From Amoebophrya sp. A120 (Eukaryota > Protista > Dinoflagellata): 64,000 nt of DNA. The position numbers were made by a program, and so were the translations under genes. Below are positions 4,995 to 61,400 of the stretch, piece after piece. The DNA lies in contig CAJINV010000002.1 in the NCBI GenBank assembly GCA_905178155.1, forward strand, positions 4,097,838 to 4,161,837. The letters run 5' to 3'. Numbering within the stretch: the stretch's first letter is position 1; the number at the start of each line of letters is the position of its first letter. Below the pieces are notes generated by a model. It was given only the letters and a program-made list of their open reading frames with translations. It was not told the DNA's origin and made no database searches.

Positions 4995-7900
4995 ATGAAG
5001 ATGTTGCAGCGTACTTATCTGCTTCTTTTCGCATTGCTCTCGTCGTCCTTGGCCTCCATCGCCTCGGCAGTATCGTTGCAGAGATCCTCGTCTTTCCCAA
5101 GCGCAACTAGCACCAACCCCCAAAGAGCAGGTCAAACACCCAACACGAACGTACCAGACCCACCGCGAGGACTACAATTTCAGTCTCAACAGCCCCGTTT
5201 TGCAGCAGGAAGCGCAGCAGGAGGAACTGCCGCAGGAACTGGTGTGCAGTCGTCTGTAGGAGCACAGGTTCCCCCCGGCCATCATCTACAACTACACCAT
5301 GTAGGCCATAGTCAACACCAACATATTGATGAAAAGAACCACAACCTGAAGCACAGCAAAACTCCAACTCCGCCAACTGTTCCTCCAACTTCCTATTTCA
5401 ACGCGTTTTCTTGTACTTCCGAGGACCTGATCCAACCCGCATCCTCCCTGCTCTGCAGCTTATGACAGTGCACACCTCCCCCTCCGCCTCATTTGTATAG
5501 CATGCATGGCCGGCAATACAAGCATCAGCCTGAGTGCCGGTTTTGCATGACAGATTTACATTTACACTAAAGCGTATTGCTATTTGGGCTACCAGAACTT
5601 GTCATGCAAACAGTGCTAAAAGGCACAGTCTGGATTTGTGGTTTTGCATGACAAAGGAGGGATAAAGGGAGTGGTGCACCCTCATACAGCTCGCACCACA
5701 GCTACAACCACCGGCAGGTGTCCAAAGCCTCCGCTTGCTCCACGGCGGCATCCTCGACTGGGTGTAGTGTTCCAGCCACAGTCGCAGCCGAAGTGCGCAA
5801 TGCCAAGCGGACTAACAACCAGCACCCCGTTCTCGGCAGCGCGGGAAATCACGTTTTGTCGACAGCAGGGTCGGCGTCATCTCCTGGAGATGTTGTAGTT
5901 CACACGATGACAACTGCAACTGGTGCTTACGGAAAGAAAATGAACAATGACGTTGGGCCGCATGATTTTCGTGACGTGTCTGCAGGTGGAATAATTGGAA
6001 GTTGTGGCAGTACGTCAGCTAATGGAGGCGGTGGATCAACATCTTCCTCCGCAACTACTCCCTCCACTACTGACCAACATCCCGCCACGACAGCAGCGGC
6101 AGCCGCTGCGAAGCGGTTCGTCAACAGTATCGATGCGGCCCATGCGAGCTCTTTTCAACAGCAGCAGGGTAGAGGCGTTGGCTCCTCTAGTTCTTCTGCC
6201 AACTATTTGCGGGAGCTGGCGAGCATTGGGAGTGGGTCGCACCATCTGCAGAGGGATTTTGAGACGAAAAGCCGGCAGAAGCGGGAGGGCGGGCTTGGTG
6301 GAGATCATTTCAGGCACCCGTTAGACGTGGATCATCATGATGCCGGGCCCTCGCATAGTGTCGGAAAGAATTATAGTCGAAGCAGTAGCAGACATCACCC
6401 GACTTCGGGCCTGTTTCGGCAAGATCCCCACCAGGAATTGCAGCAGACACAGAAAACTACAAGCTCGACGTCCTGGAGTAGAGCAAATAATGTTGCCCAT
6501 GTGTCTTTCTTGAGCAGCAATGAGAATCACCACGATCGGTACCGGGACCAGAAAGTTTCCAGATCCCCAAAAGTTCTAGGTTTGTGTTGCAAAATCCCCA
6601 TTTAGACTCTGGGGTTGGGACGTTTTTACACGGGATACCCGGATGGAGAAGATCATAAAGTCGGACTTCGTGGTGGAGCGGCCGGAAATGTTTCGCGACC
6701 TGCACCACTATCCTGTGTAAAAGTATCGTACTCGTATTGCAATCATGCACTACAAATCCTTTTGTTAAGGTAAATCCGCATTACAGATTTTATTTCTCAT
6801 GGATGCTGAGGGAATTTGTCATGCATTTCTACGAGTGCGATACTTTTGCAGTTCATAGCCACCTGTTTAAGTTGATACTGCACGAGTTCCTGAAATGCTA
6901 CAAGGACAACAAACTCGCGATCACCGAACTGCTGCTGAACCTGACCACGGGCCGCGACGAGCTCACGGGGAGCTACGAAAACTGGGACGGGATTTATGAA
7001 TGTGCACAACTCCCCCTCCCCCTCATTTGTCATGCAAAACCCCAAATCCAAGTGCGTCCCTGCGGCACTATTTGCATCACAGATTCCGGAAGCCCAAACA
7101 GTACTACACTAGGCGCATGAGTTTGTCATGCATAGGCTCCACGTGTGGTGGTGTTTGTATTGCTGTTCATGCCAAGGCTGATTGCAGGGCATAGCATCAC
7201 AGGTTCTGCAGCCCCTCGGTGATGCATATTCTGCATGAGAAATGACCTCTCAGCATGGCCAGAAATGGGGAGCTTTTGCAAGTCACGCAACACAGATTTT
7301 TGTATGATCCGCAATACGCATCACAAGTTCGCATCCTTCCAGACCTCCAGGGATTTTTGCAATTGATTGGACATGGTGATCAACAAAAAGACGTACGACG
7401 AAATGAAGGCCGATATCCTGAGTAAAAACGTCCCCACCGCATAGTCACGTTGGTAAATCTGCAACACAAATCTCCAAGGTTTGGGAGTTGTGCATGACAA
7501 GTTTCCATCTCCAGTGTAGTGCTGGTTAGCAAGGGAAGCGGCATGAGAAAGCCACTTTCTCATCCTGTTTACAGCATTTCAGATTCCAAAACACGATTGG
7601 AAATGCCTCTCGTAGAGCTGCGCATTACAAATGTTGCTGTAATCGCAAATCTGCATGGCAACTCTGGGGTGACCGGAGAATCACCATGATCGGAACCGGG
7701 ACCAGAAAGTTTACAAGCAAATGGCCGGATGAGGGTGGCGCAAAGCAAATTGAATTGCTCTAGAAACTACCACGGACGTACACAAACAGAAACGACCAGG
7801 GTCAAACTCACACAGCTTGCACACTAACACTGGGACACAGCTTTTCGCCGCAGTGGTTGAACTTTTCGTCGCTGGAAAATATTGAAACTCGTCGCTGATA

Positions 7901-10900
7901 TTGAAGCGTTTGAACTTTTCGACGCTGGCAAATATTGAAGGACCACCATAACGCGGCGGCCTCGCACCCGCGTGCTTTTGTTCCTCTGCTGTGCTGGTTT
8001 TCGTGGAACAAACGAACGGTCTGTCTTCCGGTTTTTTGTTCTTCTGCTCGGTTACGGCGCAGCACTAGACTGCACAAGCAGCGCAAGGTGCTTGAAAGCA
8101 GTAGCTCCATTCGATCAAGCACCTCGTGCATGAACGCAGTAGCTCCATTCGCTCTGCTTCTACTAGACTTCTGGCGTTCATTACTCTCCTAGAGTTCGAG
8201 TGTATATCCTTTTGGCGATCAGCCAGCACAAGGTGTAGTGCTATTTGAGCTACCTCCGCAGCATCACAGAGCTAGTTCATCAGGCTGATGGTCAACAGCA
8301 CGGCTGGACTTCCAGCTTCTCGCAGAGCCTGGCCTGCCAGCTTCTCGCAACCCGGGAAGCTGGGCTGCCAGCTGCTCGGAGCAAGAGGGCTGACGTTCCG
8401 GCTGCCAGAATCTAGAAGCTAGACTTCTTCTAGAGCCTAGAAATCTAGACGTCTAGAACCTAGAAATCAAAGAACAACGAAATCAGTAAGAAAAATAAAG
8501 AAAAAAAGAAAGATCTTACAAAATCTAGAAAATTCTGAGAAATCTAGAAAATCCCAGAACATCTATGAAGAAGTTAGAAAATGATCGAAAACCTCTATCA
8601 ATAGAGGTTCTTATAGAAGTTCTCAACTATTTTAGTTTAAGTGACCGGAGAATCACCATGATCGGTACCGGGACCAGAAAGTTTCCAGATCAAATGCAAA
8701 TGTGTCTGGGTCCGGAAGAATGCAAGACTTGTCATGCAGGTTTTCCATGACCCATGAGGTCTAGTATGTAGGACATAGCATGACAGAGTCTGTGAGCGTT
8801 CTATCATGCCTATCCTGCATGAGAAACTGCCTCTCGATTAGGTCAAAAGTGGACAGCTTTTGATAATCATGCAACACAGAGTTTTACATGATTCAGATTT
8901 AGCATGACAAGTTGCTTTGTTCCAGACCCAGACACTTTTGCATTTGATAGTAGCACCGCAGGTGATCCAGGGGCTCGTGGACATTGACACGCAGCGCTAT
9001 TTATGAACCGCAAATATCCCTGGATGTCTGGACACGAAACTTGTGATGCTGAGTGGCGTATCAGGAGGAGGCCACAAGTGCCGGCTGAGCATGACGAGTT
9101 TCTGAGCTTCTAGGTGTTGCCTAGTATTCTGCGTGACAAATTGCGTTTCTGCGTGACAGAAGAATGGAGCAGCTCTTGGGTAACGCGCGTGACAGTGGCC
9201 ACATAGATTATGCTTCTCTTCTAGTCGTAGTTCGTTCTCCCCTCTTTTTCATCTGAAAATTTGAAGTTTCTCTGTGCTTTAATTTGGTCTTTCCAGTACA
9301 TAAACACAAGCATGACAAACTTGCATTTTTCCAAACACCAGACATATTTGCAATGCATACTGATTGGTCGACCAGCTGCAGAAGGAGGGGAAGGAGGTAA
9401 CCAACTGTTTGTGTATATTACAAGAAAAAGATATAAAACGCAGTACGTGCGTGTCTTCGTAGTAGAATCACCACGATCGGAACCGGGACCAGAAAGTTTC
9501 CAGAGTCCCTAATATTTCCGGCCGAACCTGCTCGCCCCACTCAAATCAGTTCTGCTCGTCTTGGGCTGAAACAGCGACTGGGGGAACTACGGCAACTCCA
9601 CCGAGAACCAGAAGCAGAACCTCTTCCTCCCAAGGTGAAAATGCGGAAAGCGCAGCCACTGGAAACAAGCGAGGAGTAAAAAATCGAAACCGCGAGCAAG
9701 GTGGTGCGAGGAGAGAAGAATTGGAGGCGTTGAGATCGCAGCTGATGGCCGAAGATTTCATTTCCGGCCGGAGCTTCAACGCGGCGCAGGTCGGGATGCA
9801 AAATTCCTTCTACGGCACGACGAGTCACAACTTCATGTCGACTTTATCCTCCTTGGATGTCGAGCCGGGGTCCCCGAAATTTCCCTCTAGCAACCGGCAT
9901 CGGAAAAACCAAGACGACTTTGCGAACACCAGTAAGATTGTAAACAGTCGCGCGGACAACACAAACGCTAGTAGGTACGTTCCCGCGGGTGGGAAAACGT
10001 CAGTCACAAACCGGCGACGGAACATGTACTTGCCTGGAAATCACGAACATGATGGTGAGTCAACTACTTCTCCAAATGAAACAAAGGATTTTATCCTGAG
10101 TAAAAACGCACCCACACCAGAGTCAGGATGGGGATTTTGCAACACAAACCTAGGAGTTTTGTGAGTCACGCTCGACAAGCTGCACTCTGCAGTCTAGTGC
10201 AGGTTAGCAAGTGCAGCCGCGTCACAGATTCATCTGCTCATCCTGTTCACAGCATCACAAATTCCAAAACACGACTGGAAATGGCTCTCATGGGGGATGC
10301 GCATTACAAGTCTTCCTGTCTTTGCAAATCTGCATTACAGCTCTGGTGTGGGTACGTTTTTACTCAGGATAGATTTGGGTATGAGTTCCACCGTGCAGCT
10401 GAGTTACGACGAAATCGTTCGGGGCGGACATCAACTGAAACCCTTGGAGCCGATTACAGTAACCGCGAAGAGGTTTGCAAGGGCGAGTCGGTATCGGGAT
10501 CATGATGCTAGTGGAATAAACGAGGAAGGACAAGAAGGAAATCAAACAGGAGCAGGACGAGTTGCGGCCGCGCAACACACTGCAGACGAGGCAGCAGGGG
10601 GTCGTGTAGTATCTGGGCCTTCTAGAAGTCAGCATCACCACCAGACACATCAGCATCCACGAAGTCTTGGTGCTTCGTCTTCCTCCAACTACCAACAAAT
10701 TGCGGCCCAGCACGCGCACCAGGCTTTGGAAAACGCGATGGACCTAGATAAGGACGAGATTTTCCTCCTCCACGACCTAGAAAATTTACATATGACCGAC
10801 ACCAACGCAGACGCGCACCCGAGCGACTCCATTTTTCTGAGTAGTCGTGGCGCAGGAGCGCCAGCGCCGGCGGGAGCGATTACAACAACCTGTGCGCCGG

Positions 10901-11376
10901 ATGAAGGGGTTAGTTGTACCACGCGGGATCATCATCATCATCATCATCTGCGAGAACCTCCAAGGTTGTCTGTAGACACGAGTAATGGTGCCGCCGCGAC
11001 ATCGAGTTTGGGATTGGGAACAAACATTGGGACGTGTAGCAGCTTGTCTTCCTCTTGCGGAGCGGGCGGTCTTTCTATACCAGATGCCTTAGACCAGTTG
11101 AAGTTCAACACCCTGGTGACTACATCAAGTGGCCACGGGAGCGGTGCTGGAGCAGGTGGAACGATGAACAAGCGGGGTTCATTGAATCCTTACACCGGGG
11201 TGTTGAACGACAAGTATGTCGACGCACGAAAACTGCAGCCGCTGGAGATAGGTGAAAAAGCTGCGGCGAAGAATCCGCAAGATGTTGATGAAGAACCCAT
11301 GATGAGTCAGCGAACTGAGGCAAGCAGTATTCAATTGTTGAACAGTCCGAGGGATCTCTTGAAAAACCTTTTGTGA
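4995..11376 (+). CDS. Hypothetical low-complexity protein with predicted signal peptide, interrupted by introners and a 3-kb repeat-cargo array
   Basis: N-terminus MKMLQRTYLLLFALLSSSLASIASA. ORFs 4995, 5718, 9721 and 10297 join when the introners and the 6564-9504 array are removed. Confidence 0.65.
5461..5686. mobile_element. Introner, family B
   Basis: TATGACAGTGCACACCTCCC...GGGAGTGGTGCACCCTCATA; TSD CAGCT. Confidence 0.9.
6638..7413 (+). pseudogene. Captured gene fragment, Timeless/Tof1-like, with its own introners
   Basis: Exons give MEKIIKSDFVVERPEMFRDLHHLFKLILHEFLKCYKDNKLAITELLLNLT, resembling the Timeless (Y/F)(K/R)(E/D)L..K.IL..F.....N..A..ELL segment. Bounded by truncated family C elements. 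Confidence 0.5.
6709..6857. mobile_element. Introner, family D (inside captured fragment)
   Basis: TATCCTGTGTAAAAGTATCG...CGATACTTTTGCAGTTCATA; TSD ACCAC/GCCAC. Confidence 0.85.
8689..8949. mobile_element. Introner, family A (inside cargo 3, left end clipped)
   Basis: ATCAAATGCAAATGTGTCTGGGTC...GACCCAGACACTTTTGCATTTGATA. Confidence 0.8.
10092..10371. mobile_element. Introner, family C
   Basis: TATCCTGAGTAAAAACG...CGTTTTTACTCAGGATA; TSD GATTT; removal restores KDLGMSS. Confidence 0.92.
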
Positions 11377-42509: not shown

Positions 42510-45500
42510 ATGGCGACCGAAGCGCCACCGAATGCCGCGCACATGTCAGAGCGGCAGGAGTACCGGTTATGAACTGCAAAAGTATCGTACTAGTATAAAT
42601 TGCAATCATGCATTACAAATCTTTTTCTCAAGGTAAATCTGCATCACAAATTTTCTTTCTCATGCTGAGAAAATTTGTAATGCATTTATACGAGTACGAT
42701 ACTTTTGCAGTGCATACCGATGGATGCTCTACAACGGTACACCGGCAGCGCGGGTAAAAGCACTGGAAACGCTCTTCATCAAGTTTGACATCAACGGTAT
42801 AAAGTTGCTTCTGCTTGTCTTTTTCATGCGTAACTTCTGTGCATGACAAAGGTCGTCTGTCATGCGTGTGACCCGCATGATTTTTTTGAAGCAAACTTAT
42901 AGTTATGCAAAAAGTTTACCACCTATTTCTATTTGTATTTCCAGGTTCTGGCGAAATCGACTACGATGAATTCAAGAAGATTCTCTGGTCTTGCATTACA
43001 AATCTTGTTCCCAAGGCAGATCAGCATGACAAATTTCATTTCTCGTGCTGAGGAAATTTGTAATGCAATTTCGGCCGCTCAGGGTGCAACTCAATAGGGC
43101 CGTCCGTGGAAAATGGCTAGCAGGGGGCGCGCTTCTAGAAGTTGTCTCTAGAAGCCCCACCCAGAAAGCTGCATCGAAGACGCACTGAAGAAAACGACTG
43201 GCACTGCGGGGGCCGTCCTCGCGGGCGGAAAATAGCACAACAGCGGAGCTCCTTTTGGCCCCAATTTCTTTTCCTATAGATTGGAGGGCGCTCCATAGTG
43301 GCTGAGTAGTACGTAGGGGAGGCCGTTCTACGAGTTTTTTTGTGGTAGCGGCCCCACCGGGCGGGCTTCTTTACTTTAGAATGAAGGGGCCGGCGAAACG
43401 GCAGGGGGTGCGCTGCGGGTGGTAATGTCTAGAAATGAGACAGCGCACACGAGGGCAATCAGGCCAAGGCCCGCGGCCGGGTGGGGGCGAGCTAGCAGCT
43501 GAGCTCGGGGAACGAAAGCGAGCGCGCCCTCTAATGTGGGCCGCTTCTAGGGAAGGGCGCTACTAGCAAGCGCGGGCCCGGTTTGCCATGCTAAAACCGC
43601 CCGCCGGGCTTCTAATAGTGGCCGCGGCTGCGCTAGGTGCAGACTCCCAATGGTAAGGCTCTTTCGACTAGCCTGCGTCCCCACACTCGCCAAGTTTTTT
43701 CCTTGGTGTTTACATTTAGATTTACTAGACGACCTATCGCCGGCGTCCTGGACGCCGGCGTAGTAGTCTAGTAGTTATACAAAAAGTTTACCACCTATTT
43801 CCAGGTTCTGGCGAAATCGACTACGATGAATTTAAGAAGTATCCACAAAAAATTTCCCGTACACGTACAAATGCCGTTTCTGCATGACAAAGCTTCCCTC
43901 TGATCCTGTTTGGCATGACAAGTTGTCTGCTCTAAGTATAGTGAAATTTGTGATGCATGTTGTACATGTTGTACGGGAAATTTGTATTGCATACGAAGAT
44001 TCTCTGGTGGCTCGAGTTTTCCCTCTCCGATGAGGGTGTGCGAGAAATCTTCGACGAGCTCGACGCGGATCGGTCTAACTGTCTGGATATCACATGCAAA
44101 TATGTCTGGGTCTGGGAGATATCGAGCTTTGTCATGCTAGTCTGGCATGACTCCGAACTCTGTATTGCGTGGCCGCGAAGGCTCCTCTTGGCTGTCATGC
44201 AAAAACGCAGTTTCTCATGCAGAGCGCGCAACTCAGAAGGGCCGAAAAATTTGTCATGCTTGGCAGCGCATTTGCATTACAATGTGCTCACTATTCCCTT
44301 CCGTGCATCACAGGTTTCCAGACCCAGACATGTTTGCAATGCATACTGGACATGCGAGAATTCGTGCGGTTTTTCGACGTGCTCGACCGGTATCGACAAA
44401 TGCACGAGGCGGACGTGAAGGACCAGCAAGTCGGATTATGCATTGCAAAAGTATGATCGTACTCGTACTAATTGCAGACATGCATGACAGATCGCCTTGG
44501 TAAGCTAAAACAGCATTACAAATTTCATCTGTCATGCTAAGGAAATTTGTAATGCAATTTAAACGTAGTACGATGCTTTTGCACTTCATACGGGTTGGTC
44601 CGCAGCAAGATCTGCCAGATGTTTTTCGTCATCATCATCCTGGCCACCGCGTTTTTCGCCTATTCCTGGGTGGCGGCGTCCGCGCAGGGCCGGGACGCGA
44701 GCAAGTGGTTGACCATGACGCTCGTCGGGGCCAGCATGCTGTTCGTCGGGATATTCGTGCTGGCCGCGTACCCGATTCTCATGATGAAATACGAAAAGTA
44801 CCAACAGGAGAGGGAACAGCGGAATTTTGAACTCCAGCAAATGAAAGCAAACATGGCACACCACGAGACCATGGACTCACCAAAGAGCGGGAAGGGATCG
44901 GTATGGATATTGATGAATGTGATGTTGAGTAGCATCACAATTTTTTTGCATCGCATGACGGAGAAATCTTGTCATGCGACGCTAGCACGCGACCGAAATC
45001 GCATCTGGAAAGAGGCTCTGATTGATATCCAGCATGGCAAGTACAAATCAATAGCATTTTCTGCATCACAGACTTACACTTTTTACCCACGTTCAAAATA
45101 ATACAGAAATCACCCATGGGAATGGGTTCGACCTCGCGATCAAGGCCACAACTCGACTCCGATGGGTATGGAGGGGTTCTCACACGTTACACTGACTGCT
45201 GTTACATGAATTTTCCATGCGAAATCAGTAGCACCCTCCACTTCCACACAATGAATCGTTTTTGTGCATCACAAGTTCTTGACGCGCTTTATAGCATGGA
45301 AAGCAGTTCCAGATTTGTATGTGCAAGACGTGCAAACGCTAACGCCCCCCCTTTCCTTTTGTTGCTGTTGCACCACGAATTCACGTAACAGCTAAGCAGT
45401 GTAACGCTTGTGAGCGCCATAACGCGTTTGCGGACTTCGGAGACGAGCCTCGCTTCCAATCGTCCACTATGACACCCTATGAACTGCAAAAGTATCGTAT

Positions 45501-48312
45501 TCGTATAAATGCATGACAAATTCCCTCAGCATGAGAAATAGAATTTGTAACGCGGATTTACCTTGAGAAAAAAATTTGTAATGCATGACTGCAATACGAG
45601 TGCGATACTTTTGCACAGGATACACCCGGCGGCGGGCAGCAGATGATGAGCTCTTACCGGATGAGCAGAATGGACCAGAGTATCATACGAAAAAAGTGTT
45701 TCACTGTAAAAGATTTTGCGAGTTTCGCATTACAAGTTCGTTACATGTGACAAGGAAAACTTGCCGTGATGCGCGGTTGCAAAGGGAAATAAACACAGCT
45801 AAAAATCACTTGTCTTGCATGTGTAGCAACACAAACACTTCTACGATGCATTGTCTGCATTACAAGTTTACAGTGAAGCAGTTTTTTCTTGTGATACAGA
45901 GCCAAATGCAGTTGATGGATCAGTCCATGCACAGTACGATGGGAGCGAGTCAGATATCCTGTGCAAAAGTATCGTACTCGTATTGTAATCATGCATTACA
46001 AATCCTGTTCTTAAGGCAAATTAGCATTACAAATTTTATTTCTCATGCTGAGGAAGTTTGTAATGCATTTATACGAGTACGATACTTTTGCAGTTCATAT
46101 CAGACCATGAGTCCCAACAACCAGAGTCAACAGCATAATATGGGCGGCAGTCCGAATAACCAGTCCAAATACGCACTGCAGGACTTTTCGAAGCATATCG
46201 TACGAAAAAAGTGTTTCACGATTGTAAGGATTTTGCAAGTTTTGCATCACAAGTTTGCTCTACATCACCGAGAAAATTTGCCATGCGAGATTCCTAAGGG
46301 AAAACACAGGTAAAACTCCATTGGCTTGCATGTGTAGCAAGACAAATACTTCTCAGATACATTTTCTGCATTACAAGTTTACAGTGAAGCAGTTTTTTCT
46401 TGCGATAAAGCAGGCCTCGCAGATATTGTCCGATGAAGAGTTGATCGCCGAATACCAAAACAATGAGGAGATCGAAGACTTCGCATACCACCAGGGGAAC
46501 TACGATTTGGCAAAAATCCAGCAGCACCAAATAACACCCTCGACGTTTCACCCCATGGCGACAAAGGGATATCGAGGTATAATTTTTGAAATGCAAAAAC
46601 GCAGTTTCTCATGTAGTTGACGCAAGAGATAGTCGCTCAGAAAGTACTTGTCATGCGCATCCCCATGATATTGGAGGCTGCTTATTATTCGCAAACTTGC
46701 ATCACAAGTTTCCAGAGCCAGACCCAGACATGTTTGCACTGCCTAGGTCTACTCGCTCAACAATTTTTCTTCCACAGGTTCTTGGGTCCAGAAGAACAAT
46801 CCGAACCTGACCCTCCAAGGAAGCTCCGCGGCCACCACTTTCTGGTCGCGCAAAAGTGTTGGCCAAGTGCTCCATGGCCATCACTTTTGCCCATCACTTT
46901 CCGGTCGGGCAACCGGGCAAGAGTGATGGCCAAGAGCTTCCAGGCAGGCACTTTTTGCCACCTCTTTCGTTCCGGCCGGGCACGCTTTTCCTATTCGGCT
47001 TCAATCACTTTTCTCGCGCACGCTTTTGCCCCTCGGCTTCTGGTGCATGGCATGGGCGGGGGGGCGCGAGGCAAAACCGCGCAAACAAGCCCCCGGAAGC
47101 GTGAGGCCCATCCCCATCCAGGGGCGGGGGTTTTCTTTACGCCGGCCGCCGAAGCCGCCCCAGAATAAGCTTCGCAACTGGCCTCCTTCGCTTTGCTTGC
47201 CGCGTGCGGCTAAAGGGCTGACGGCGGGCCGGCGTCCTGGACGCCGGACCGCAAAAGGCGTTAAAGCGGCGAGGCCGCTAGGGCAAGCGCAGGCGCGGCA
47301 ACGCGGCTATAGGGCTGACGGCGGGCCGGCGTCCTGGACGCCGGACCGCAAAAGGCGTTAAGGCGGCGAGGCCGGTAGGGCAAGCGCAGGCGCGGCAACG
47401 ATCTTCCTCGCGGCAGGCAGCGTTATGCTTTTCAACCTTCTAGCCACATCCTATTCGACTCCACGCCAGACCTTCTAAACGCATTCCCATCTTTAGAATT
47501 ATCTTTAAATCTACTAGCCCAGCGGGCGTCCTGGACGCCCGCGTCAAGAGGCTAGTAGATCTACTTGCTCGAGAACAATTTTTCTCGGGTCCAGAAGAAC
47601 AATTTTTCCACAGGTTCTTGGGTCCAGAAGAACAATCCGAACCTGATATTGCAGTGAAAAGTGCCCCCCACCCCTGAAAGTGCAAAATTTGTGATGCGAA
47701 GTTTCCAAATGAAAACTTTCTGTCATGCATGGAAGGAGTATGGATCTTTCTGATGCAGAGTCTAGGCGTATATCGCATCGCTTGCATGACAAGCGCCGCT
47801 CTTTCTGGGCCCTTTTGCAATACAAATTTTTGCTATTCACGATTGAAGACCTGTGATGCTGATAGATGCAAGAGCGCGAATGTTTCATTTGGAAAGGTTT
47901 GCAATACAAATGCTTTTAAGTTCGGGGGTGGGGGCATTTTTCATTGTAATACCTGACCCTCCAAGGAACGTCAGACTACGTTGGAAAATCTATCCAGAAC
48001 ACGAACCGAATGAGCCAGCACGCGCAGAGGGAGGGTTTGACGAAGCAGAAAATCGAAAACATCAAACTCAACTCCACCATCTCGAGCGGGTGGTACGGCG
48101 GCAGCTGCAGCCCCTACGAAAGCAGCCACATGATACCGCCCCAGGCCACGAATAACCGGATCGCGCCGACGGAGCCGGGTGGCCTGATAGGGGGCACGGC
48201 GCCGAGGGGGCACGGACAGGGGGCTTTAATGAATACGGGGATGTCCTCGAGTCCGAAGAAAATCGGGACCCACGGAAACAGCCCTAAATCACAACTGGCG
48301 CTGGGGAATTAG
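42510..48312 (+). CDS. EF-hand pair plus two-transmembrane-helix protein (multi-exon)
   Basis: Spliced FIKFDINGSGEIDYDEFKKIL...IFDELDADRSNCLDMREF, then hydrophobic FFVIILATAFFAYSWVA and LVGASMLFVGIFVLAAYPIL; last exon ends at 48312. Confidence 0.75.
42568..42716. mobile_element. Introner, family D
   Basis: Family D TIRs; TSD CCGGT/CCGAT. Confidence 0.88.
42990..43771 (+). mobile_element. GC-rich insert with Helitron-like 3' end, flanked by an ~80-90-bp duplication
   Basis: Ends in hairpin CGCCGGCGTCCTGGACGCCGGCG + 7 nt + CTAG|T; flank 42900-42989 is repeated at 43772-44008. Confidence 0.65.
43840..43993. mobile_element. Introner (minor family)
   Basis: TATCCACAAAAAATTTCCCGTAC...GTACGGGAAATTTGTATTGCATA; TSD AGAAG/CGAAG. 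Confidence 0.85.
44088..44345. mobile_element. Introner, family A
   Basis: Family A TIRs; TSD CTGGA. Confidence 0.9.
44437..44590. mobile_element. Introner, family D
   Basis: Family D TIRs; TSD CGGAT/CGGGT. Confidence 0.85.
45167..45421. mobile_element. Introner, family H
   Basis: Family H TIRs; TSD decayed. Confidence 0.8.
45478..45622. mobile_element. Introner, family D
   Basis: Family D TIRs; TSD CACCC. Confidence 0.9.
45681..45896. mobile_element. Introner, family J
   Basis: Family J-like TIRs; TSD CAGAG. Confidence 0.88.
45955..46099. mobile_element. Introner, family D
   Basis: Family D TIRs, opposite orientation to 45478; TSD TCAGA. Confidence 0.9.
46196..46407. mobile_element. Introner, family J
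   Basis: Similar to the 45681 copy; TSD AAGCA. Confidence 0.88.
46823..47555 (+). mobile_element. GC-rich insert with Helitron-like 3' end, flanked by an ~80-bp duplication
   Basis: Ends in hairpin GCGGGCGTCCTGGACGCCCGC + 9 nt + CTAG|T; internal 97-bp tandem repeat at 47207-47400; flank 46744-46822 is repeated at 47556-47968. Confidence 0.65.
47647..47951. mobile_element. Introner (minor family)
   Basis: TATTGCAGTGAAAAGTGCCCCCCACCCC...GGGGTGGGGGCATTTTTCATTGTAATA; TSD CCTGA. Confidence 0.9.
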
Positions 48313-49473: not shown

Positions 49474-52400
49474 ATGACAAGGAGGAAAAAAATGCGGCTT
49501 CGAAGGTTTCTCTACCGTCAGCTGCAGGCTCTTGCCCTTTCGTTTTTTCCGCGGCAGCTCGTCTCGTCATTTCGATCTTCTGTGCAAAGCACGGCGGCGG
49601 GGGCGGTAATATTAAACTTGGTCGCCAATCATGACGACCGGACCACTACAAGAAGGACCACGGAGAGGCGGAAATTAATGGTGAAACTGTTGCAAGGACG
49701 TCGAGAAGGGCGGCCGATACTGCTGGTCGCCGTGCTCCTAATTCTGGTCGCCGCTGTTATACTCATTTTCCAAGTGGCGCAGGATCTGCTTTGGGGTTCT
49801 TCCGCTGTGGTTGTGGATAAGCAAACAATGCGTAAGATAGCAAAATCTGCAAAATCTGGAAAAAAAAATATATGGCATTTAAATTTTGACGGTTGTGAGA
49901 GAGAAGGAAAAAAAGAAGAAGTGCGGTAAGTGCCCACGGCATGCGAAGCCTTGTCCTTGTGGGCCTCCGGGTTGCGCTCGTGTTTCGCTCGTCCTTTCGG
50001 AAACAAAACTCGCACGCCCATCGATGTGAGAGAGCGAGCAAAACCGCAGAGGCAGTCGCGCGAACAAAACTCGGCGCCGCAGGCCGCCGCACAAATTCCT
50101 GCACGCAGCCCGCCAAAATTCCGTTGCCCGGCGCCCGCCTGAAATTGACGCTGCCCGCCCCCCGGGCAAAATTTGACGCCGGGCGCCGCCAATTTTTCCG
50201 CAGCAAGCCTCGGGTCCCCGTTCCGCTGCGGAAAATTCAAAATGCAGTTTTGTGAGCAAAATCGCGAAAACCGCCGGACCCACGAAAACCCATTGAAATC
50301 GCAATGAAAATCGGCGCGGAGCAATTTTGTTTTCGCTCGCGCCACCTATTTTTCAGGTTTTCGCGATTTTGTTGCAGTAGTTTAGATTTTTTTTTCGCGA
50401 CTTTGTTTTCCAATTTTGTTCCGAAATTTTGTTTCGGGTTTTGTTTTCTATTTTGTTTCGAAATTTTGAAGCGGACTCTTTTGTCCCGATTTCCATGAGC
50501 AAAATTTGTTCGCGGACTCTCATGAAAATTTTGCTGTGAGTCCTCTGCGGCAAATTTCTTTCAGAGCGGCTGCGTTTCCAAAGCCCTTTTTTACGCTAAA
50601 ATCCGGAGTAGTATTGAGATAGTGTTGCGGCTGTCCGGTTCGAGACGATGCTGTACAGGGTGGAGCACGAGCAGCATATGCCCAACGGAGTCCGATGATC
50701 GAGAATGAGAATGACTAGAGCCACGCCAGGACGCTTGCGTGATTTCTTTTTTCGTTTTCCCAATTTTCCCGATTTTGCTATCTTGGTTCTCCGGAACATA
50801 TGATTCTTCCGCTGTGGTTGTGGATAAGCAAACAATGCGTTAAAATCGCTTCAAATCCAATTCAAAACGATTTCAAAAATTCCGAAATTTCAACTTTGGG
50901 CGTCAGTGGGTCATGCCTTATTTCAGAAAAAGGCAGGCAGCCCGTCAGCAATTTTTGCCAAATCATAGCTCTGGGGTTTCGGACTTGCGTGTGTTTCAGA
51001 GCAGTTCTGGTGCTGCGCGGGATGCTTTCTTCGGCTTTCCTTCCTGCACTTGCTAGAAAAGCGTGGCTGCGGGGTTCTTTAGCAAGCCTGCGAGCAACTT
51101 GATCAACACAGCTCGGTGCCAGGTTGGCGGGCGGACGACTACCTACCGGCGCCAGGGTGGTAGGGTTGCTGGCGAATGAACCTACAGTCTTTCACGGGCC
51201 TCGAAGATATCACACGACTCCCCGTCCCCTGGGCTATTTATAGGCTTGATGCAAAACGGGGGGCCACTGCTCGCCTCTGGGGACCTGTGGGCACCCAGAG
51301 CAGGACTCCCTTTTGGGGCTCGGAAGATTTCGTCGTTCGGAATCCGGTCTTCCGGAATTCCGGGCAATTCAAAAAGGGAGCTCGAATTCAGTCCGATTTC
51401 GGTTCGCCATATCAGTATCCACGATTCGGACTGAGGTAGGACTATCGTTTTGAATTTGAAGAGCTGGGCTCCGGAGAGGAGCAAATTCAAACGGTGGGCT
51501 GGCCAAGTCGCTGAATTCAAACGGTGGGTTGATCATTTCAGGAAATTCAAACGGTGGGCTGGCCAAGCCAGGAATTTCAAACCGTGGGCTCCCCAGATGC
51601 CGGAAGCCGAACTGCTGGCGGACGCATAGGAGCGGAGAAACCAAAGAAGGGGCTCCACGGCTCCAGGGCCAATCGCAGTGGTTGCAGCGTTGGGGCCCCG
51701 AGTAGGTGAAATAGATAGAGACGCCAGCCGCACACACGCGCATGCGCGCGCACAGCTTTTGTCCTGTGGCACGTTGAAATGTCGCGAGCTCTATCATGAT
51801 GTGCCCCGGTCGACAACACCAATGAGGGGAAAAATCTCCGCGCATCAGAAGGCCAGGAGACGGGCGCACGAGGCGAGGAAATCATGCCACGAGATAGCGG
51901 CTCTCGTTGTGGCAGATTCCAAAACTTCCAAATTTTCGAATTCGTTTTGAATTGGTTTGGAAAGCAAATTAATGCTCGGGCGCTTCTTGATTAAGGGTTC
52001 TTCCGCTGTGGTTGTGGAGAAGCAAACAAGGCGTAACGAAACGACACCACCAACACCATTTCCGAGTAGTACCTTTTTTGTTCGCGCCCAAAACATCATG
52101 GGTGCCGGGGCAGGCGGTGGAGTGGGCACTGGCAGTAGACGCGGCAGTGGAAAAAGTGTCGAAGCTGCACGAAATAAACCTGGAGAAGCAGGGCAACCAG
52201 GTCCGCCATTAGGAGCAGCTACAATAAATGAACCGAAAGATGAAAAAGTACAACTATCAATGGCGCCGACGCCAGTGAGTATGGACGCACCATCGAGCCT
52301 GGTGTCGTCTACTTCCACCGCGGGACGGGGAGCGCGACAACCTGGCACTATGGGCGGAGGTGGAACTGCCGTATCAAGCCCGGCAGGTAGCACAACGAGA

Positions 52401-55400: not shown

Positions 55401-58400
55401 ACCCCATAGTTGTCATGCAGATTTGCACTCACAGGAAGATTTGTAATGCGCATCCCCATGAGAGGCATTTCCCATCGTGTTTTGGAATTTGTAATGCTAT
55501 AAACAGGATGAGTAGATGGCTTTGTGATGCGGCTGCACTTGCTAAACTGCACTACAATACAGAGAGGAACTTGTCATGCGTGACTCCCAAAACTTCTCGA
55601 CTTGTGTTGCGAGATCCCCATCTTGACTATGGGGTGGGGACGTTTTTACATAGGATACCAAGAAAGCTACACTCACACAGTTTTTTTCCGCGATACGAAC
55701 GTCCCCTCATGGGCGGTACAGACTATGAACTGCAAAAGTATCGTACTAGTATAAATGCATGACAAATTTCCTCAGCATGAGAAATAAAATTTGTAATGCG
55801 GATTTAGGTTAGGAGGGAGATTTGTAATGCATGACTGCGATTACTACGAGTGCGATACTTTTGCACAGGATACAGGCCGACCATCCGCTATGTTCAGCAT
55901 TGTGGCGTGCAATCCCGCTGCCAGCAGCATATCAAATGCAAATATGTCTGGGTGGTCTGGAAGAGTGTGATGCTGCTTGTCGTGCCGCGTGACACAGAAG
56001 GTCAGGCATGCAGGTCCTAGCATCACAGGTTTTGGGCAGGTTGCGCCATGTGCCTACTTAATCCGCATGACAAATGCCGTCTTTGGGTGACAAGAAATGA
56101 GCAACTTTTGCGGTCCATGCATGACAGATTTTTGTCTGGTGTGAAACGCGCATCAGAAGTTTACATGTTTCCAGGAGACCCAGACACATTTGCAATTCAT
56201 ACAGCAAGTCTCTCGACAATGCTTGGCAAGTTTTTGAGAAGGTATAGATTTAGATTTTATTTCAGATGCAAATGCATGATTAGAAGACGAAGAGTGAGAC
56301 AGAAGAAATAAAATTTAAATTTCCTTCAGAAGGTGAAGGTCCTGCTGAAACAACTGCCATCAGCATCACAAAGTTCAATTGTCGGTGCTCCTCTCCTTTG
56401 TCCTCGCCTGGTTTTGCGATGTTGTTGCCCAGGGAGGTGGTCTCTGCTCGCTTGGAAAGTCGTGCCATGATCATATATAAACATGAAATTCAAATAATTA
56501 TTTGTGCCAAAGGTGAGCACTGCCGACGGCGAGGGGAGTTGTCTTTATGAGCCAGTTATGAACTATAAAAGTCATGTACTCGTACAAATGCATTACAAAT
56601 TTCCTCAGCATAAGTAAAATTTGTTGTAATGCTGATTTACCTTGAGAAAAATAATTGTAACGCATGATTGCAGTACGAGTGCGATACTTTTCCTTTTGCG
56701 CTGCATACCAGTAGCAAACTCTTGCCGTTCGACCATGCGGCAGAAGCCGGGCCTGATGGGTTACTGTGGGATGGTATCAAGAATAAAAACGTTGACGTCC
56801 CCACCCCAGAGTTGCGATGCAAATTGGTATGCTTAAATATGTTTGTCATGCGGAGCCCCATGAGAAGCAATTTTTAGCGGTGTTCTGGAATCTGTGAATC
56901 AGCATGAGATGCTAGATCTGTGATGCTGCTGCACTAAGTACAAGTAGCTAAACGCGATTACCCTGCGAGCCCAAAGAACTTGTCATGCGCAACAGCCGAA
57001 GCGTGTTGATTTGCCTAGCAGCTTTTCCATCTTAACTCTGGGGTGGGGACGTTTTTCCACAGAATAGATTGGCGTCTTTGATGATGGTGGTAGACAGATT
57101 GACCCGAACTACCTGTTTCCATACAGCGGAGGATCGGGCGGATGGGCGCCTGAGGTATCATATGTAAAAACGTCCCCACCTCAGAGTCAAGACGGAAATT
57201 CTGCAACACAAATCCAGACGTTTTGGGAATCACGCATGACAAGTTGCAGTGCGTTGTAGGGTGGTCGTGCAGGTCAGTAAGGACAGCCGCATGGAAAATC
57301 CATCTCATTATCCTGTTATACAGCATGATCACAAATTCCAAAACACGACTGAAAATGCTTGTCATGGGGACGATGCGCATCGCAAATGTTCCTGCCATCG
57401 CATATCTGCATGACAACTCTGGGGTCGTGGGGACGTTTTTCCACAGGATAGATGGGAACCATTGCTGCCGGAGCCACGACCACGAAGGAGCACTGCGCGG
57501 AAGTTTGCCTGGCGCATGACAGTATGGATTGCAAATGAATATCTCTGGGTCTGGAAGATTGCAACTTGTCATGCTAAATGCGAATCATGCAAAGATCTTT
57601 GTTGCATAAGTGCCAAAAGCTGCCCACTTTCGACCAAGCTGGGAGGGAATTTCTCACGCAGGATAGGCATGTTGACAGAAACATCACAGAGTCTGTCATG
57701 CTAGGTCCCGCATTCCAGAACTCATGGGCCATGGAAAATCTGCATGACAAGTTTGCACTTTTCCAGATGGCCCTGACTTATTTGCATTGCATGGACAGCT
57801 GCCTGGGCTATTCGTGGCACGATTCGGGCGAAGTGTGCTTTCTGACACGGATCCCCTGCGTGATTCACGTCAAGCACATGCACAGTCCAAGGTGGTTATG
57901 CAATGCAAAAGCGTAGTACAGTAGTTGTACTTCTAGTAGTAGTTGCATTTAATGCAACTAAGTATCTATAATACTAATTCAAAAATTCTGGCGGGCGCGG
58001 GGTTGCAAGCTACTAGTAGGAATCCTGCTAGCAGAATCGTACTAGCAGAAAAACGGCTACTGGTAGAAATCCTGCTAGTGATTTTAGCGCGACAAAAAAG
58101 CGCGAGAGGTACTAGTGACATTGAGCCACTAGTGACAAAAAGCCGGACTTTGGGGAAAGCGGAAACACTAGTGAGAAAACCCGCCAAATTGGGAAACTCG
58201 CTCGGAGGGACCGAGACGCGCGCTGCCCGGCCCCCAGGTGGCCTTCGGACCTGCCTGCCGTGGTCTGGGCCCTTGGCCTTGGCTTAGCTGCCTGGCGGTT
58301 CGGGATTGGCGGCCCTGGGCCGGAGTCGAGCTGCATTCTGGCGCCCCTTGCCCTTCGCCCCCTGTTGCGGGGGATTTGGCACCGGTTTGCGCCTTTCCCT

Positions 58401-61400
58401 GCCGCCTGTGGCTCTGCGGGCCGGGCTTCGTCGCGTGGCCACTGCCGGCCGCGAGGGCTCTTCGGCCTCGCCGGGTCTGCCTGCTTTTGCATGCCCCGTG
58501 TCCGTTGGGCAGCCGGGCGGGTTTCCGGTTTCTTTACGGCTCGCCCCTTCGGCATGTTTGGGCGCCCCCCCCTTTCGTTTCCGGGGCTTTTTGCCTCTTC
58601 CCCGGGCGCGGGCTCTGGCCTGCTTATTTTTTTTGGGGTTGCCCGGTTTCTCGCGAGAACCACCCGCAGCGCCCTCCCTGCCTTCCCGCTGCCCCCCTGC
58701 CTGCTGGCTCTGCTTTATCTTTGCTTGGCGCCGGCCGTTTTTCTAGTCTTACTTTCGGCCGTCGGCGCTCTCTCTTCGTTCTCTTTCCTGGGACTAGCCT
58801 CCCGGGGCTTCGAAAAGGGTCTTGGCACGCTCTCTGCCGGACCTGTTTGTGGCGGCTCGGACAGGGGCTGCGCTGTGCGCCCCCTACCGCCTCTCGCGCC
58901 TCGCGGCCTTCTCTCTACCTACACTTCTTTCGCTCCCGCCGACCGAGGGAGGAAGGCCAGGGGCGCTGCCGTTTTTTTTTTCGCCTGTTGCGCCAGCATA
59001 GTTTGAGGCTGTAGCGCTACCCTGTAGGCTGCTTCCCCCTCGCCCCCCCCTTGCACCCCCTCGTCGCCGGGCCGGCGGGCGCGGAGCGCACGCCCGTTCT
59101 AGATAAGTACTACTAGAAGTACATTTTCTTTTTCCATTTTTCATGCTGAGCAATTTTGTAATACAAAATTGCTCAGCATGAAATATGGAATTTGTATTGC
59201 TAGTGAACCTGTACAAACGGGCACCCCTGACGGTGCGGGCCCTCTTATACAAAAGCGTAGTACAGTAGTTGTACTTCTAGTAGTAGTTGCATTTTTACAA
59301 ACTTGCAGCTCAGGATGAAAAAGGGAATTTGTATATGCTAGTTTACCCATTAGGAAAAAGATTTGTCTTGCATCAGTCACAACTACGATAGTACTTTTGC
59401 AATGCAGAGCTGTATCCTTTCGACAAGGTACCGGCGATGAGTTGCTTGGAGGAAGGAAAAATCCGGTCGATAACAGTCAGTTATGCAAGAAAAAATCTGT
59501 GTAAGTCAAAGTCTGTGATGCAGCGCATGCAATACAGTTACGCCTGTCATGCTGGCTAGCCATAAAAAACTCCACTTCTTTTCAAATGTGTTTTCACGTA
59601 ATATTAGCGGTGCATGAGAGCAGGTTTTCTTGCCATGCAGAGCAAACTTGTCATGCTCTGAGCACTTCAAGACGCTTACACTTACACAGTTGTTTTGTTG
59701 CATATCAGTGACGAGGTGAACGCGAAACAGCTGCCCGCCGGCATGACCACTGCTTTCGTGGTGCCGAAAAAGTCAGCTGCAGGGGTTTCCGCGACTAGTA
59801 CAGCCAGAATCAATATCCCGTACCGAACCACTTCAATTCGCCCGTCAGACGTCGAACTGGTGCCGTATGGCGTTCTCAAACGTTACATTCATTCTCAACT
59901 TGTTACATTCATGATTTGTAATGCAAGAACGGCAACAACCAAAGGGACAAGCGTGCTGCTTTCGCATCACAGATTTGGCACAGATTCAGATGCTGTTTAG
60001 CCCTGCTTCGGAAATTTGTCATGCGAAGCACCTGCTTGATCATCTGACGGCTTAAGATATTTTTGCATGACAAATTCATGGAACAGTTAAGAATGCAACG
60101 TTTGAGAGCCCCATATGCCCCGCTCGCAGCTGTTCGCGTGGCAGTCGACCGTCTTGACCTATTTATGCATTGCAAATATGTCTGGGTCTGGAAGGAGAAG
60201 GTTGCAACTTGTGATGCTACCTCAGGACTCTAAAAAAAATGAAAATCTGTATTCCATGACCAGCAAGAGGAGTCCAGTGTGTGCTATGCGGGGAGGCCAT
60301 TTCTCATGCGGAGTAGGCATCAGGGAGCCGTCTAAAAATCTGTGATGCTACGTCATGCATTACAGGCGTTATGGGTCATGGAAAATCTGCATGACAAGTC
60401 TTGCAACCTTCCAGACCCAGACACTTTTGCATTTGATACTATTCCGGGACAAACGAGCCCTACGTGGCGACGAATGGGTTGAGCTATGTGCAGGGCACCC
60501 CCGGGCAGATTACCGGCGACTCAACGGACCCCCAGTGGGGACCGGTGGACTCCTTCGGCGTGCACACGGACCAAGACAGCAGTAACGCGGGGGCCTGGTG
60601 GATCGCGTCGTTTCGGGATAAGAAGCCCAGGTTTGTCCACAAGATGCGGTGGTTTACCAGGGATTGGTTCGATTTTAAAGCAGCCTTCGGCGCCAAGCTG
60701 TATTTTGACGGTAGTCTCAACGCCGATACCATGACCCTGCCCACAGACACAGACGGGTCCTTCACCAACTTGGGCGCGGGGTCTTCCTTCGAAAATTTCG
60801 GGTTTGACGTGATCCTAAACAAGGTCTTCTGGCAGATCAAAATCGAAGTCGTGCCCGCGACGAGGAGCGACGGCAGCAGCGACAAAAATATCAAAGACCA
60901 CATTATGGCTTGCTCAGAAGATGTATACAATCTCAAACGTTACAACAGATGAATCTGAAACTTCAACTTGTCTTGCATGAACAGCATGAGTACCATACAG
61001 AGGCTTGGGCTTTTCGCAGCACAAATTTCGCCAGATTTATTTTCATGGGGTTTGTAGTTCCGAAAGTTGTCATGCGAAATCGTGTAGCAGTAAGCTAGAT
61101 CCTGCACTTCTTGCGTCAGAGATTTCCAGACTCTATTGCAACGTTTGAGATTGTAACGTTTGAGCAGGTCATACACATGTTTACGGGCGCGCACTTCTAC
61201 CAACTCCGTCCCCATCTGGTGAACCTGCCCGCTTACACGGAGGTTCGCGAAAATTACTTCAAGGGAGTGAAACAGGTTTACGTACTGAGAGGAAAAATTC
61301 CCCCTCCCCATATTGGAAACGCGTCCGGCTGACTATTTGCGATGCAGATTTGCGACCACAAATCCTGTCTGTCTTGCAAGAAGGCAACTCCAGAGAGTTG

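Follow-up and report, generated by a model that had tools for sequence, protein, structure and literature searches.

A 64,000-bp stretch of the Amoebophrya sp. A120 genome (hereafter, the window) carries six loci at which one or more DNA segments, termed cargos, lie between direct copies of the local host sequence, termed X. These insertions are real: each is about 1 kb long and is accompanied by a 37-90-bp (mostly 37-46-bp) duplication of its landing site, and the identified cargos are the organism's own sequences (pieces of TIMELESS twice, and low-copy repeat families). We tentatively attribute the insertions to target-primed, template-jumping reverse transcription with the enzyme working in trans on a staggered break and in some cases going through more than one round during a single repair, a reading to which we give somewhat less than an even chance.

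The six X-cargo-X structures with their 12 cargos had been proposed by a sequence-only reading, and all were confirmed at their coordinates (Table 1). The window is Amoebophrya DNA packed with introners, exon-plus-introner DNA making up most of it, and exact 20-mer direct repeats 100-6000 bp apart were found in none of 50 shuffled windows. Together, the cargos (430-1669 bp) amount to 11,888 bp, or 19% of the window, at about one event per 5 kb. The duplications are variable in length, measuring 37-90 bp in 12/12 events and 37-46 bp in eight: 41, 42-44 and 44 bp at locus 1; 74, 56, 46 and 43 bp at locus 2; 78-90 bp at locus 3; about 79 bp at locus 4; 40 and 37 bp at locus 5; and 45 bp at locus 6. 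Because a scan of the window (score of at least 17) yielded no X-cargo-X structure with a unique-sequence repeat of 17-36 bp, the lower bound of about 37 bp does not reflect a limit of detection.

Table 1. Positions of X copies, cargos and the intron that holds locus 2, numbered from the first letter of the window
Feature	Positions	Strand	Description
Locus 1 X copy a	6522..6565	+	host-gene in-frame coding sequence; last 2 bases ambiguous
Cargo 1a	6566..7675	+	unspliced TIMELESS fragment, P0001 aa 790-887; both ends inside introners
Locus 1 X copy b	7669..7712	+	opens with the last 7 bp of cargo 1a, which the 1b event duplicated again
Cargo 1b	7713..8640	.	non-coding, CTAG-rich (14 sites)
Locus 1 X copy c	8641..8691	+	
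Cargo 1c	8690..9463	+	unspliced TIMELESS fragment, aa 592-620
Locus 1 X copy d	9464..9504	+	runs on into downstream exon
Intron holding locus 2	28930..33460	+	inverted-repeat intron of topoisomerase II gene; boundaries approximate
Locus 2 X copy a	29008..29069	+	target positions 1-62
Cargo 2a	29070..29499	.	430 bp, GC 0.60
Locus 2 X copy b	29500..29567	+	target positions 7-74
Cargo 2b	29568..30556	.	989 bp; palindromic tandem repeats inside
Locus 2 X copy c	30557..30622	+	target positions 1-66
Cargo 2c	30623..31672	.	1050 bp
Locus 2 X copy d	31673..31717	+	target positions 21-65
Cargo 2d	31718..33386	.	1669 bp, CTAG-rich
Locus 2 X copy e	33387..33438	+	target positions 23-74
Locus 3 left X	42900..42989	+	3' end of GT-AG intron, 35-nt exon, 10 nt of next exon; no introner between
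Cargo 3	42990..43771	+	introner fragment at start; long hairpin (-34.4 kcal/mol) and CTAG at end, as in cargo 4
Locus 3 right X	43772..44008	+	split by introner at 43840-43994
Locus 4 left X	46744..46822	+	intron 3' end, short exon, 12 nt of next exon; no introner between
Cargo 4	46823..47555	+	multi-copy family; 97-bp tandem repeat, 3' hairpin, CTAG end
Locus 4 right X	47556..47968	+	21-bp internal re-duplication; split by introner at 47647-47951
Locus 5 X copy a	49794..49833	+	within open frame that resumes after copy c
Cargo 5a	49834..50803	.	inverted repeat at left end and about 19 bp inside right end
Locus 5 X copy b	50804..50840	+	
Cargo 5b	50841..51994	+	subterminal inverted repeats, single-copy depth; right end as in L039 cargo
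Locus 5 X copy c	51995..52034	+	2 substitutions relative to copies a and b
Locus 6 left X	57906..57950	+	starts about 10 bp inside an introner
Cargo 6	57951..59249	.	GC 0.60; opens with fold-back copy of X end
Locus 6 right X	59250..59294	+	

Repeated insertion at the same site, as the sequence-only reading had held, is borne out by the counts: six of the 12 events reused a site, compared to a maximum of three in 200,000 simulations of random insertion, and the event pairs 1a/1c, 2c/2d and 5a/5b reused boundaries within 0-3 bp. X is, also as proposed, host sequence that differs at each locus; it is exonic or intronic, and the repeats are not the termini of one element family. At loci 3 and 4, X is uninterrupted in the left copy only, an introner dividing the right one. 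Introners contain or adjoin four of the six targets (loci 2, 3, 4 and 6). The suggested search for a shared X motif found none above random windows in the 12 X sequences (k = 4-7; P 0.29-1.0).

The two gene-derived cargos, 1a and 1c, stand in one array and come from a single TIMELESS gene located outside the window, and both retain introns. The exon for aa 858-871 is absent from cargo 1a, between two fused introner halves, and cargo 1c runs in the order introner, exon, introner, exon and GT-started intron. The 1b duplication takes in 7 bp of cargo 1a, and 1b, at least, was probably inserted later than its neighbor. In P0005, the public gene model at this locus, TIMELESS exons are spliced to the host gene's downstream half; for locus 5, no matching gene model was found, which is weak evidence. 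At locus 2, the topoisomerase II intron would measure about 190 bp without the array, compared to 4.5 kb now. Variant copies of cargo 5a occur elsewhere, as do related copies of cargo 6; within cargo 6 itself, 16 bp of X recur in inverted orientation near 59109-59124.

The cargos encode nothing or are self-derived, have variable starts and include no mobility gene, and 10 of the 12 are not exon-plus-introner DNA. The earlier description of them as largely unrelated to one another is qualified by a right end common to cargos 3 and 4, weak similarity between 3 and 6, and a single donor gene for 1a and 1c. No cargo among the 12 resembles a retrocopy that had been spliced and given a poly(A) tail; poly(A) was absent from all cargo ends, and short TAG-type ends occur at 1c, 3 and 4 only. 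Rfam identified no ribozyme or SINE head; its five weak miRNA-like matches, on palindromes of cargos 2b and 6, scored below the gathering cutoff. Across 18 cargos, a hammerhead-core regular expression gave two loose matches and the spliced-leader motif gave none. Reverse transcriptase (RT), endonuclease, HUH, Rep and integrase domains were absent from the 14 window ORFs scanned, and the first four of these also from 77 ORFs in 0.62 Mb of a second assembly. Viral contigs contained no match to the introner or hairpin motif.

In the second assembly, 11 candidate pairs were inspected, three of which are clear X-cargo-X cases (L018, L039 and L057). Three more are doubtful (L074, low complexity; L011, whose X also occurs in L014; and L068, whose flank also occurs in L046), and the others were rejected as longer degenerate exon-type duplications (L022, L061 and L065), two introner ends (L075) or a coding repeat (L002); the remaining listed pairs were sorted out as tandem or segmental repeats without single inspection. 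Among 630 end-to-end comparisons of 18 cargos, common right ends against X were found for 5b and the L039 cargo (score 64) and for cargos 3 and 4 (score 49), relative to a maximum of 32 in 3,000 shuffles. A fixed 3' end is seen for 5b/L039 and, with one truncated copy in addition, for 3/4; for eight of the 12 cargos no shared end was demonstrated.

The final part of cargos 3 and 4 comprises a 21-nt palindrome, a gap of 8-9 nt and CTAG with a T directly behind it, and their right-end hairpin (about -34 kcal/mol) includes a compensatory base pair. Cargo 4, which begins with GC, was found in an RNA-type contig set, where a further copy comprises only its last 129 bp with the same 20 letters before and behind; judged from two contigs, this copy appears to be truncated at the 5' side and to have a separate duplication, 20 bp or more in length. 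At both loci with an introner within X (2/2), the left X lacks the introner, keeps the canonical intron end and, beyond the introner, matches exactly for 10 nt (locus 3) and 12 nt (locus 4). Introner skipping was absent from the other 21 of the 23 pairs tested. An introner-less left X would also result from duplication followed by later introner insertion, which cannot be told from skipping by divergence: X copies differ by about 2-3%, and the locus-4 introner has diverged by at least 2%.

Under target-primed, template-jumping reverse transcription, the target would be cut twice at a spacing of about 44 bp, or first nicked and later cut again, so that X is exposed, and the 3' end at the start of X would pair by 2-5 bases with the 3' end of an RNA and prime copying. 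Either a structured non-coding RNA would serve as template or a transcript that is still nascent and unspliced. The enzyme would be a non-LTR-type RT acting in trans on cellular RNA, which would then jump back onto X via the DNA overhang and close the break. At loci 3 and 4, it may instead have returned on a partly spliced transcript of the locus itself, and this would account for a left X without an introner. Repetition of the cycle before ligation would produce arrays with near-identical boundaries. Widely staggered nicks filled in around captured DNA had been proposed from the outset, and the structures fit the filling of a widely staggered break around copied DNA; the re-cleavable sites proposed with it are one route only, as boundary reuse within 0-3 bp also fits repeated copying in one repair episode.

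Counting for reverse transcription are the shared right ends, the 3/4 hairpin and the truncated cargo-4 copy, which point to polarity, together with the introner-less left X at loci 3 and 4, the boundary reuse and the derivation of two cargos from one donor gene. Furthermore, the eukaryotic elements found with long target duplications are the non-LTR retroelements Dualen and R9 (PMC9977147), non-LTR enzymes jump serially between templates (PMC2104539; bioRxiv 2021.04.30.442027), and non-LTR elements have been reported in Amoebophrya (PMC7789003). Against it count the introns, all kept in both gene cargos, as trans-retroposition of mRNA usually leaves a different product; the fold-back start of cargo 6 and the junction re-duplication at locus 4, which are typical of repair polymerases; the 7-15-bp duplications typical of RTE elements (PMC6007223); and the scanned ORFs without RT and the eight cargos without a shared end. 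A broader proposal, which we regard as unlikely, is a general 'copy-in' machine, probably an RT freed from its own element, that would use a fixed stagger of ~44 bp, copy structured or nascent RNA at hand, make several donor-target jumps per event and be able to write a locus's own spliced transcript back into DNA.

The close rival is DNA-only repair, which we place only a little behind reverse transcription and likewise hold to be somewhat less likely than not. Here, long 3' overhangs of a staggered break would be filled on both sides, duplicating X, and a captured fragment of flap, over-replicated or hairpin-derived DNA would be joined in; in a variant, the repair polymerase would switch to a distant locus and return about 44 bp behind. 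Arrays would reflect iteration or persistent break hotspots, often at introner ends, and the placement of four of the six targets in or at introners favors DNA-only repair. Gene cargos that are unspliced genomic pieces, two pieces from one donor (consistent with spatial proximity), and the fold-back and re-duplicated junctions at loci 6 and 4 all argue for such repair, as do tandem duplications arising from 3'-overhang fill-in (PMC8355091), the capture of distant and sometimes multiple fragments at yeast breaks (PMC11724301) and the Daphnia introns that result from repeated staggered breaks (PMC4202315). However, right ends common to the base are unexpected for random fragments, few cargos are exon-plus-introner DNA despite its prevalence in the window, the introner-less left copies would twice call for hairpin skipping or the later arrival of an introner, a minimum length near 37 bp would demand fixed geometry, and the Daphnia repeats span only 4-12 bp (PMC4202315).

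A rolling-circle mechanism of the Helitron or Replitron (HUH) type that moved non-autonomous elements and captured host DNA could account for the palindrome-CTAG-T ends of cargos 3 and 4, the asymmetric inverted repeats of 5a and 5b, unspliced gene fragments of the kind captured by Helitrons (PMC6544945) and variable duplications like those made by Replitron-1 (PMC10288648). We nevertheless judge it very unlikely, given that Helitrons start with TC and make no duplication (PMC6544945), whereas cargo 4 starts with GC and its truncated copy has a duplication; that CTAG sits in a longer stem extending into the target; that only 2/18 cargos have a long (9-11 bp) terminal stem, by a scoring window that missed most of cargo 4's stem; that the junctions show no terminal direct repeat or RG target of the Replitron-1 kind; and that no HUH protein was found in the 14 window or 77 second-assembly ORFs. 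A dedicated acquisition system had been one of two options in the sequence-only reading; in CRISPR- or integron-like form, storing foreign DNA at reusable sites, it matches the array form, site reuse and narrow duplication size, but fares poorly and seems highly improbable: identified cargos are self, the locus-2 cargos matched none of 50,697 phage records and the hairpin motif no viral contig, the 12 X sequences share no target motif, the sites lie in unrelated exons and introns, and the 14 ORFs hold no integrase or RT. Equally remote is an assembly artefact, or alternative alleles strung into tandem arrays. The best DNA run may be the very sample assembled, contig depth is 22.9 over cargo 5b compared to 28.6 and 29.6 over its flanks, and no single clean tree accommodates the substitutions among the X copies of locus 1; yet short-read contigs cross the left flank-X junctions of loci 4 and 5, the X-5b junction and 5b-X-right flank with zero mismatches, the copies of X are distinguished by substitutions, by indels and by the insertion of an introner, part of cargo 1a is included in the 1b duplication, and the same form is seen in the second assembly.

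The combination of long duplications with stacked, unrelated cargos was not found described in the literature searched, and no description of an RT-type copying process of this kind was found for Amoebophrya's group; long duplications themselves have precedents in Dualen, R9 and bacterial insertion with long target duplication (ILTD). That retroelement duplications are much shorter, as had been assumed, holds as a rule, but the duplication has a median of 900 bp for Dualen-4b of Chlamydomonas (PMC9977147) and is 126 bp for rotifer R9 (as cited in PMC9977147). Like these elements, the arrays place an insert between long, variable duplication copies, and some cargos also show fixed 3' ends, a truncated copy and short 3' microhomology. 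Unlike them, their cargos are non-coding, mostly unrelated and include unspliced host gene pieces, and the duplications cluster at 37-46 bp while inserts pile up at one site, separated by X, no autonomous partner being found in the scanned ORFs. Variable-length duplications as in non-LTR retroposition were present in 12/12 events, whereas its spliced gene inserts were not seen (1a and 1c). Bacterial ILTD (PMC2853133) likewise involves variable, locus-specific duplications of more than 30 bp (46-47 bp in three tabulated cases) and inserts without a mobility gene, and these features of ILTD or staggered-break filler are found here; ILTD is, however, defined with empty sites and carries restriction-modification genes (PMC2853133), whereas the present events are eukaryotic, dense, and have non-coding or self-derived cargo. 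Staggered-break intron gain in Daphnia pulex (PMC4202315) shares unrelated inserts, target direct repeats and repeat and secondary events, but not the 37-90-bp repeats, ~1-kb inserts and traceable donors. Templated insertions in yeast lacking Dna2, Rad27 or RPA function are similarly copied from distant genomic sites, sometimes several, with 0-4-bp microhomology (PMC11724301), and CST/Pol alpha fill-in similarly duplicates sequence from 3' overhangs (PMC8355091); the yeast cases stem from engineered breaks and from mutants, and the available text of that study reports no X between fragments and no long flanking duplication (PMC11724301). Amoebophrya introners share this genome and are present in several targets and cargos, but have terminal inverted repeats and 3-5-nt direct repeats (PMC7789003; PMC12130899), with duplications of 2-11 bp or not given in 56/58 A120 family rows (PMC12130899 Dataset S2), and the arrays form a separate layer. 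A TIR DNA transposon or introner does not fit, since the right inverted repeat of 5a and 5b lies about 20 bp inside and their duplications are 37 and 40 bp; an LTR/TRIM element, since X differs between loci and is host exon or intron; a Helitron, since every event has a 37-90-bp duplication and cargo starts vary; and a Replitron (as defined in PMC10288648), since the junctions lack short terminal direct repeats and an RG target and no Rep match was found in the scanned ORFs. The Helitron-type 3' palindrome with CTRR end occurs in cargos 3 and 4 only.

The process that added 19% of the window also moves intron-containing exons between genes (locus 1, P0005) and has expanded an intron of a topoisomerase II gene, originally about 0.2 kb long, to 4.5 kb. 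Published work on intron gain in Amoebophrya covers, in its available text, only introners with 2-11-bp duplications (PMC7789003; PMC12130899). These arrays bear on whether new introns and structural variants stem from retroelement enzymes or from break repair, and on whether spliced RNA templates repair in nature. If the 'copy-in' machine were to exist, long introns and exon shuffling would have a second source, distinct from transposons, and the arrays would be a direct genomic record of RNA-templated break repair.

All six loci of the form X-cargo-X, in which inserts (cargos) are bracketed by duplicated local host sequence (X), were found with their 12 cargos where the sequence-only reading had put them. 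The cargos range from 430 to 1669 bp and sum to 11,888 bp. Duplication length is 37-46 bp in 8 of the 12 events, and a window scan covering 17-36 bp recovered no duplications of those lengths. Exact 20-mer repeats at these spacings appeared in 0 of 50 shuffled windows. The claim that single sites were hit repeatedly was also borne out, with 6 of 12 events reusing a site compared to never more than three in 200,000 simulations; all six landed at X and none inside adjacent cargos (P about 4e-7). The same reading had proposed looking for a motif common to X, and this comparison, run on the 12 X sequences, yielded no shared 4-7-mer above chance.

Target duplications at the window loci and at the clear cases of the second assembly
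Locus	Assembly	Cargos	Duplication (bp)	Around
1	window	1a, 1b, 1c	41, 42-44, 44 per event	
2	window	2a-2d	74, 56, 46, 43 per event	
3	window	3	78-90	
4	window	4	about 79	
5	window	5a, 5b	40, 37 per event	
6	window	6	45	
L018	second		41	849
L039	second		32-36	1108
L057	second		47	867

An assembly artefact fits these arrays poorly; it is probably not their source, and we consider it highly improbable. Contigs of the DNA-type run X1, which may be the very sample assembled and whose pieces each cover less than a whole array, match within 42200-60200 with zero mismatches at single-copy depth (27-32), and break where collapsed X predicts (46379-46799, 47926-49833, 50811-51989 at depth 22.9, and 51966-53273). 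Also against an artefact, X copies show substitutions and indels relative to one another, an introner (a short inserted intron with inverted repeats) interrupts two of them, and the 1b duplication takes in 7 bp of cargo 1a.

From a second, fragmented assembly that shares the window's introner families, a pattern scan retrieved 124 loci, none overlapping the window; after 45 short and 3 overlapping loci were dropped, 76 (622,787 bp) were searched. Eleven candidate pairs were inspected, of which three were clear, three doubtful and five rejected. Long-duplication inserts are far less dense there than in the window, and repeat-caused fragmentation may explain part of the difference. Older and longer exon-type duplications, 240-590 bp apart, are seen at L022 12993-13503, L061 2494-2784 and L065 1929-2559; these may be members of this class that have since decayed, or exons repeated in tandem.

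A single gene, TIMELESS (P0001, PF04821), supplied both cargo 1a (residues 790-887) and cargo 1c (residues 592-620), each an unspliced fragment of it. They retain introners and a GT intron, one exon is missing within 1a, and the remainder of the gene lies outside the window. The longest contig is 3.95 Mb for TIMELESS versus 13.16 Mb for P0005, the public gene-model protein at locus 1, which suggests that the donor is unlinked. None of the remaining ten cargos is coding; many are palindromic or rich in CTAG, and introners are nearly absent from them. The locus-2 cargos gave no phage match. Summed contig depth, which is not copy number, reaches 457 for cargo 4, 149-266 for cargo 6 and 55-83 for cargo 5a; together with variant-bearing contigs, these values point to probable related copies elsewhere of cargos 4, 6 and 5a, not of 5b. 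A 56-bp piece of cargo 1b (8234-8290) resembles the interior of an introner family, with 77-84% identity to nine matches in about seven distinct second-assembly contigs.

Some cargos have right ends in common up to the junction, namely 3 and 4 (score 49) and 5b and the L039 cargo (score 64), against a null maximum of 32 in 3,000 shuffles (630 pairs compared). The end common to 3 and 4 consists of a long hairpin that includes one compensatory base pair. Additionally, in the RNA-type run X3 one contig joins at 47429 and another departs at 47557 with identical 20 letters outside both, which we read as a putative 129-bp, 5'-truncated copy of cargo 4 with its own duplication. At loci 3 and 4, X begins with the 3' end of a canonical intron, takes in a short exon and extends 10 or 12 nt into the exon after it; the right X has an introner at the exon junction and the left X lacks it, a skip seen in none of the 21 other pairs among 23 tested. 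Either the left X was copied from a partly spliced local transcript or the hairpin was skipped, or both introners came later; X and introner divergence is compatible with both origins.

The loci lie in varied host contexts. The topoisomerase II gene harbors locus 2 in an inverted-repeat intron, and locus 6 is enclosed by an introner. One contig of run X3, known by its length, has 285 letters at locus 3 versus 2,028 in the genome, which one X exon plus adjoining exons accounts for. A loose end at 42515, common to RNA-type runs X3 and X9, suggests that an exon is used alternatively or that another transcript continues from there. Without the array and one X, locus 1 reads as an open frame of 499 codons and locus 5 as one of 548 codons, so X is coding there. 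Locus 5 has nearly zero RNA-type coverage and no protein match. The P0005 gene model (8565-11376) starts in cargo 1b, reads X in another frame, and then splices two captured TIMELESS exons from cargo 1c onto the downstream half of the host gene; it is possibly a chimeric gene, or else a mis-annotation.

Locus 2 boundaries are nested in a way that gives a single consistent order (2b first, followed on its left by 2a and on its right by 2c and later 2d), and its five X copies are identical over their overlaps. As 1b duplicated part of 1a, it came later than 1a. Neighbouring events (1a/1c, 2c/2d and 5a/5b) reused both boundaries within 0-3 bp, and 1a and 1c have a common donor, which is consistent with several rounds of copying in a single episode, between broken ends that stayed fixed and with no sequence-specific target. 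No single tree accommodates the two sites that vary among the locus 1 copies, so there is some conversion or polishing noise.

As to mechanism, we tentatively favor target-primed, template-jumping reverse transcription acting in trans, at somewhat less than even chances. Such a process would explain the fixed right ends, truncation, short 3' microhomology and intron-less left X. In the available sections of the sources, the printed eukaryotic long-duplication elements we found are non-LTR (Dualen, median 900 bp; R9, 126 bp; PMC9977147), and serial template jumps are known for non-LTR reverse transcriptases (PMC2104539; bioRxiv 2021.04.30.442027). Counting against it, the cargos taken from a gene are still unspliced, none of the cargos looks like a poly(A) retrocopy, and no candidate enzyme was found in 14 window and 77 second-assembly ORFs. 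DNA-only repair is a serious contender and nearly as likely: in the portions consulted, overhang fill-in yields duplications (PMC8355091), yeast captures distant and multiple fragments (PMC11724301), and Daphnia shows repeated staggered breaks (PMC4202315). Rolling-circle transposition fits poorly and is very unlikely, and the dedicated acquisition system raised by the sequence-only reading, likewise a poor fit, is most unlikely.

The window itself is eukaryotic and dense in genes, and its ORFs match P0005, a public Amoebophrya sp. A120 protein, at 98-100%. Dispersed repeats occupy 65 intervals (14.2 kb) in it, most of them 150-310 bp long with inverted ends, and break up reading frames, including the topoisomerase II gene. 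These repeats fit published Amoebophrya introners, described in part of PMC7789003 as inverted repeats with a TAT start and 3-5-nt direct repeats. Introners of different families adjoin or sit a few bases apart (24666-25191, 55378-55878 and 36539-37159), and canonical GT-AG introns enclose introner-like repeats or an entire X-cargo unit (46577-46778 and 42797-43804). In the second assembly, a common-family introner (L011 571-1051) has grown to ~480 bp via internal sequence. The C-terminal residues of public proteins P0002, P0003 and P0004 are translated introner sequence, likely gene-model read-through. A 776-codon ORF (37801-40131), immediately downstream from the frames of topoisomerase II, has a weak, below-cut-off match to the DNA gyrase C-terminal beta-propeller (E 1.2e-5) and is possibly an unusual extension or neighbor of the topoisomerase. 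GC-rich (57-65%) intergenic stretches at 3500-4900, 11500-13700, 17900-19300 and 61560-62300 resemble several cargos in composition and had no flanking duplication in the direct-repeat scan of the window; they are possibly a donor class or older insertions.

In the literature searched, with subscription journals mostly outside it, and in the portion of the PMC7789003 supplement text available, the pattern is undescribed for Amoebophrya or other dinoflagellates. The 2025 introner survey (PMC12130899), as far as its accessible rows go, lists duplications of 2-11 bp or none (56 of 58 A120 rows). A named precedent of the same anatomy is bacterial ILTD (insertion with long target duplication), as outlined in part of PMC2853133. 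In summary, the arrays work like known long-duplication insertion but qualify as members of no element family; their novelty lies in the tight clustering of duplication sizes, in cargo of mixed kinds that includes pieces of host genes, and in how densely the inserts occur and stack.
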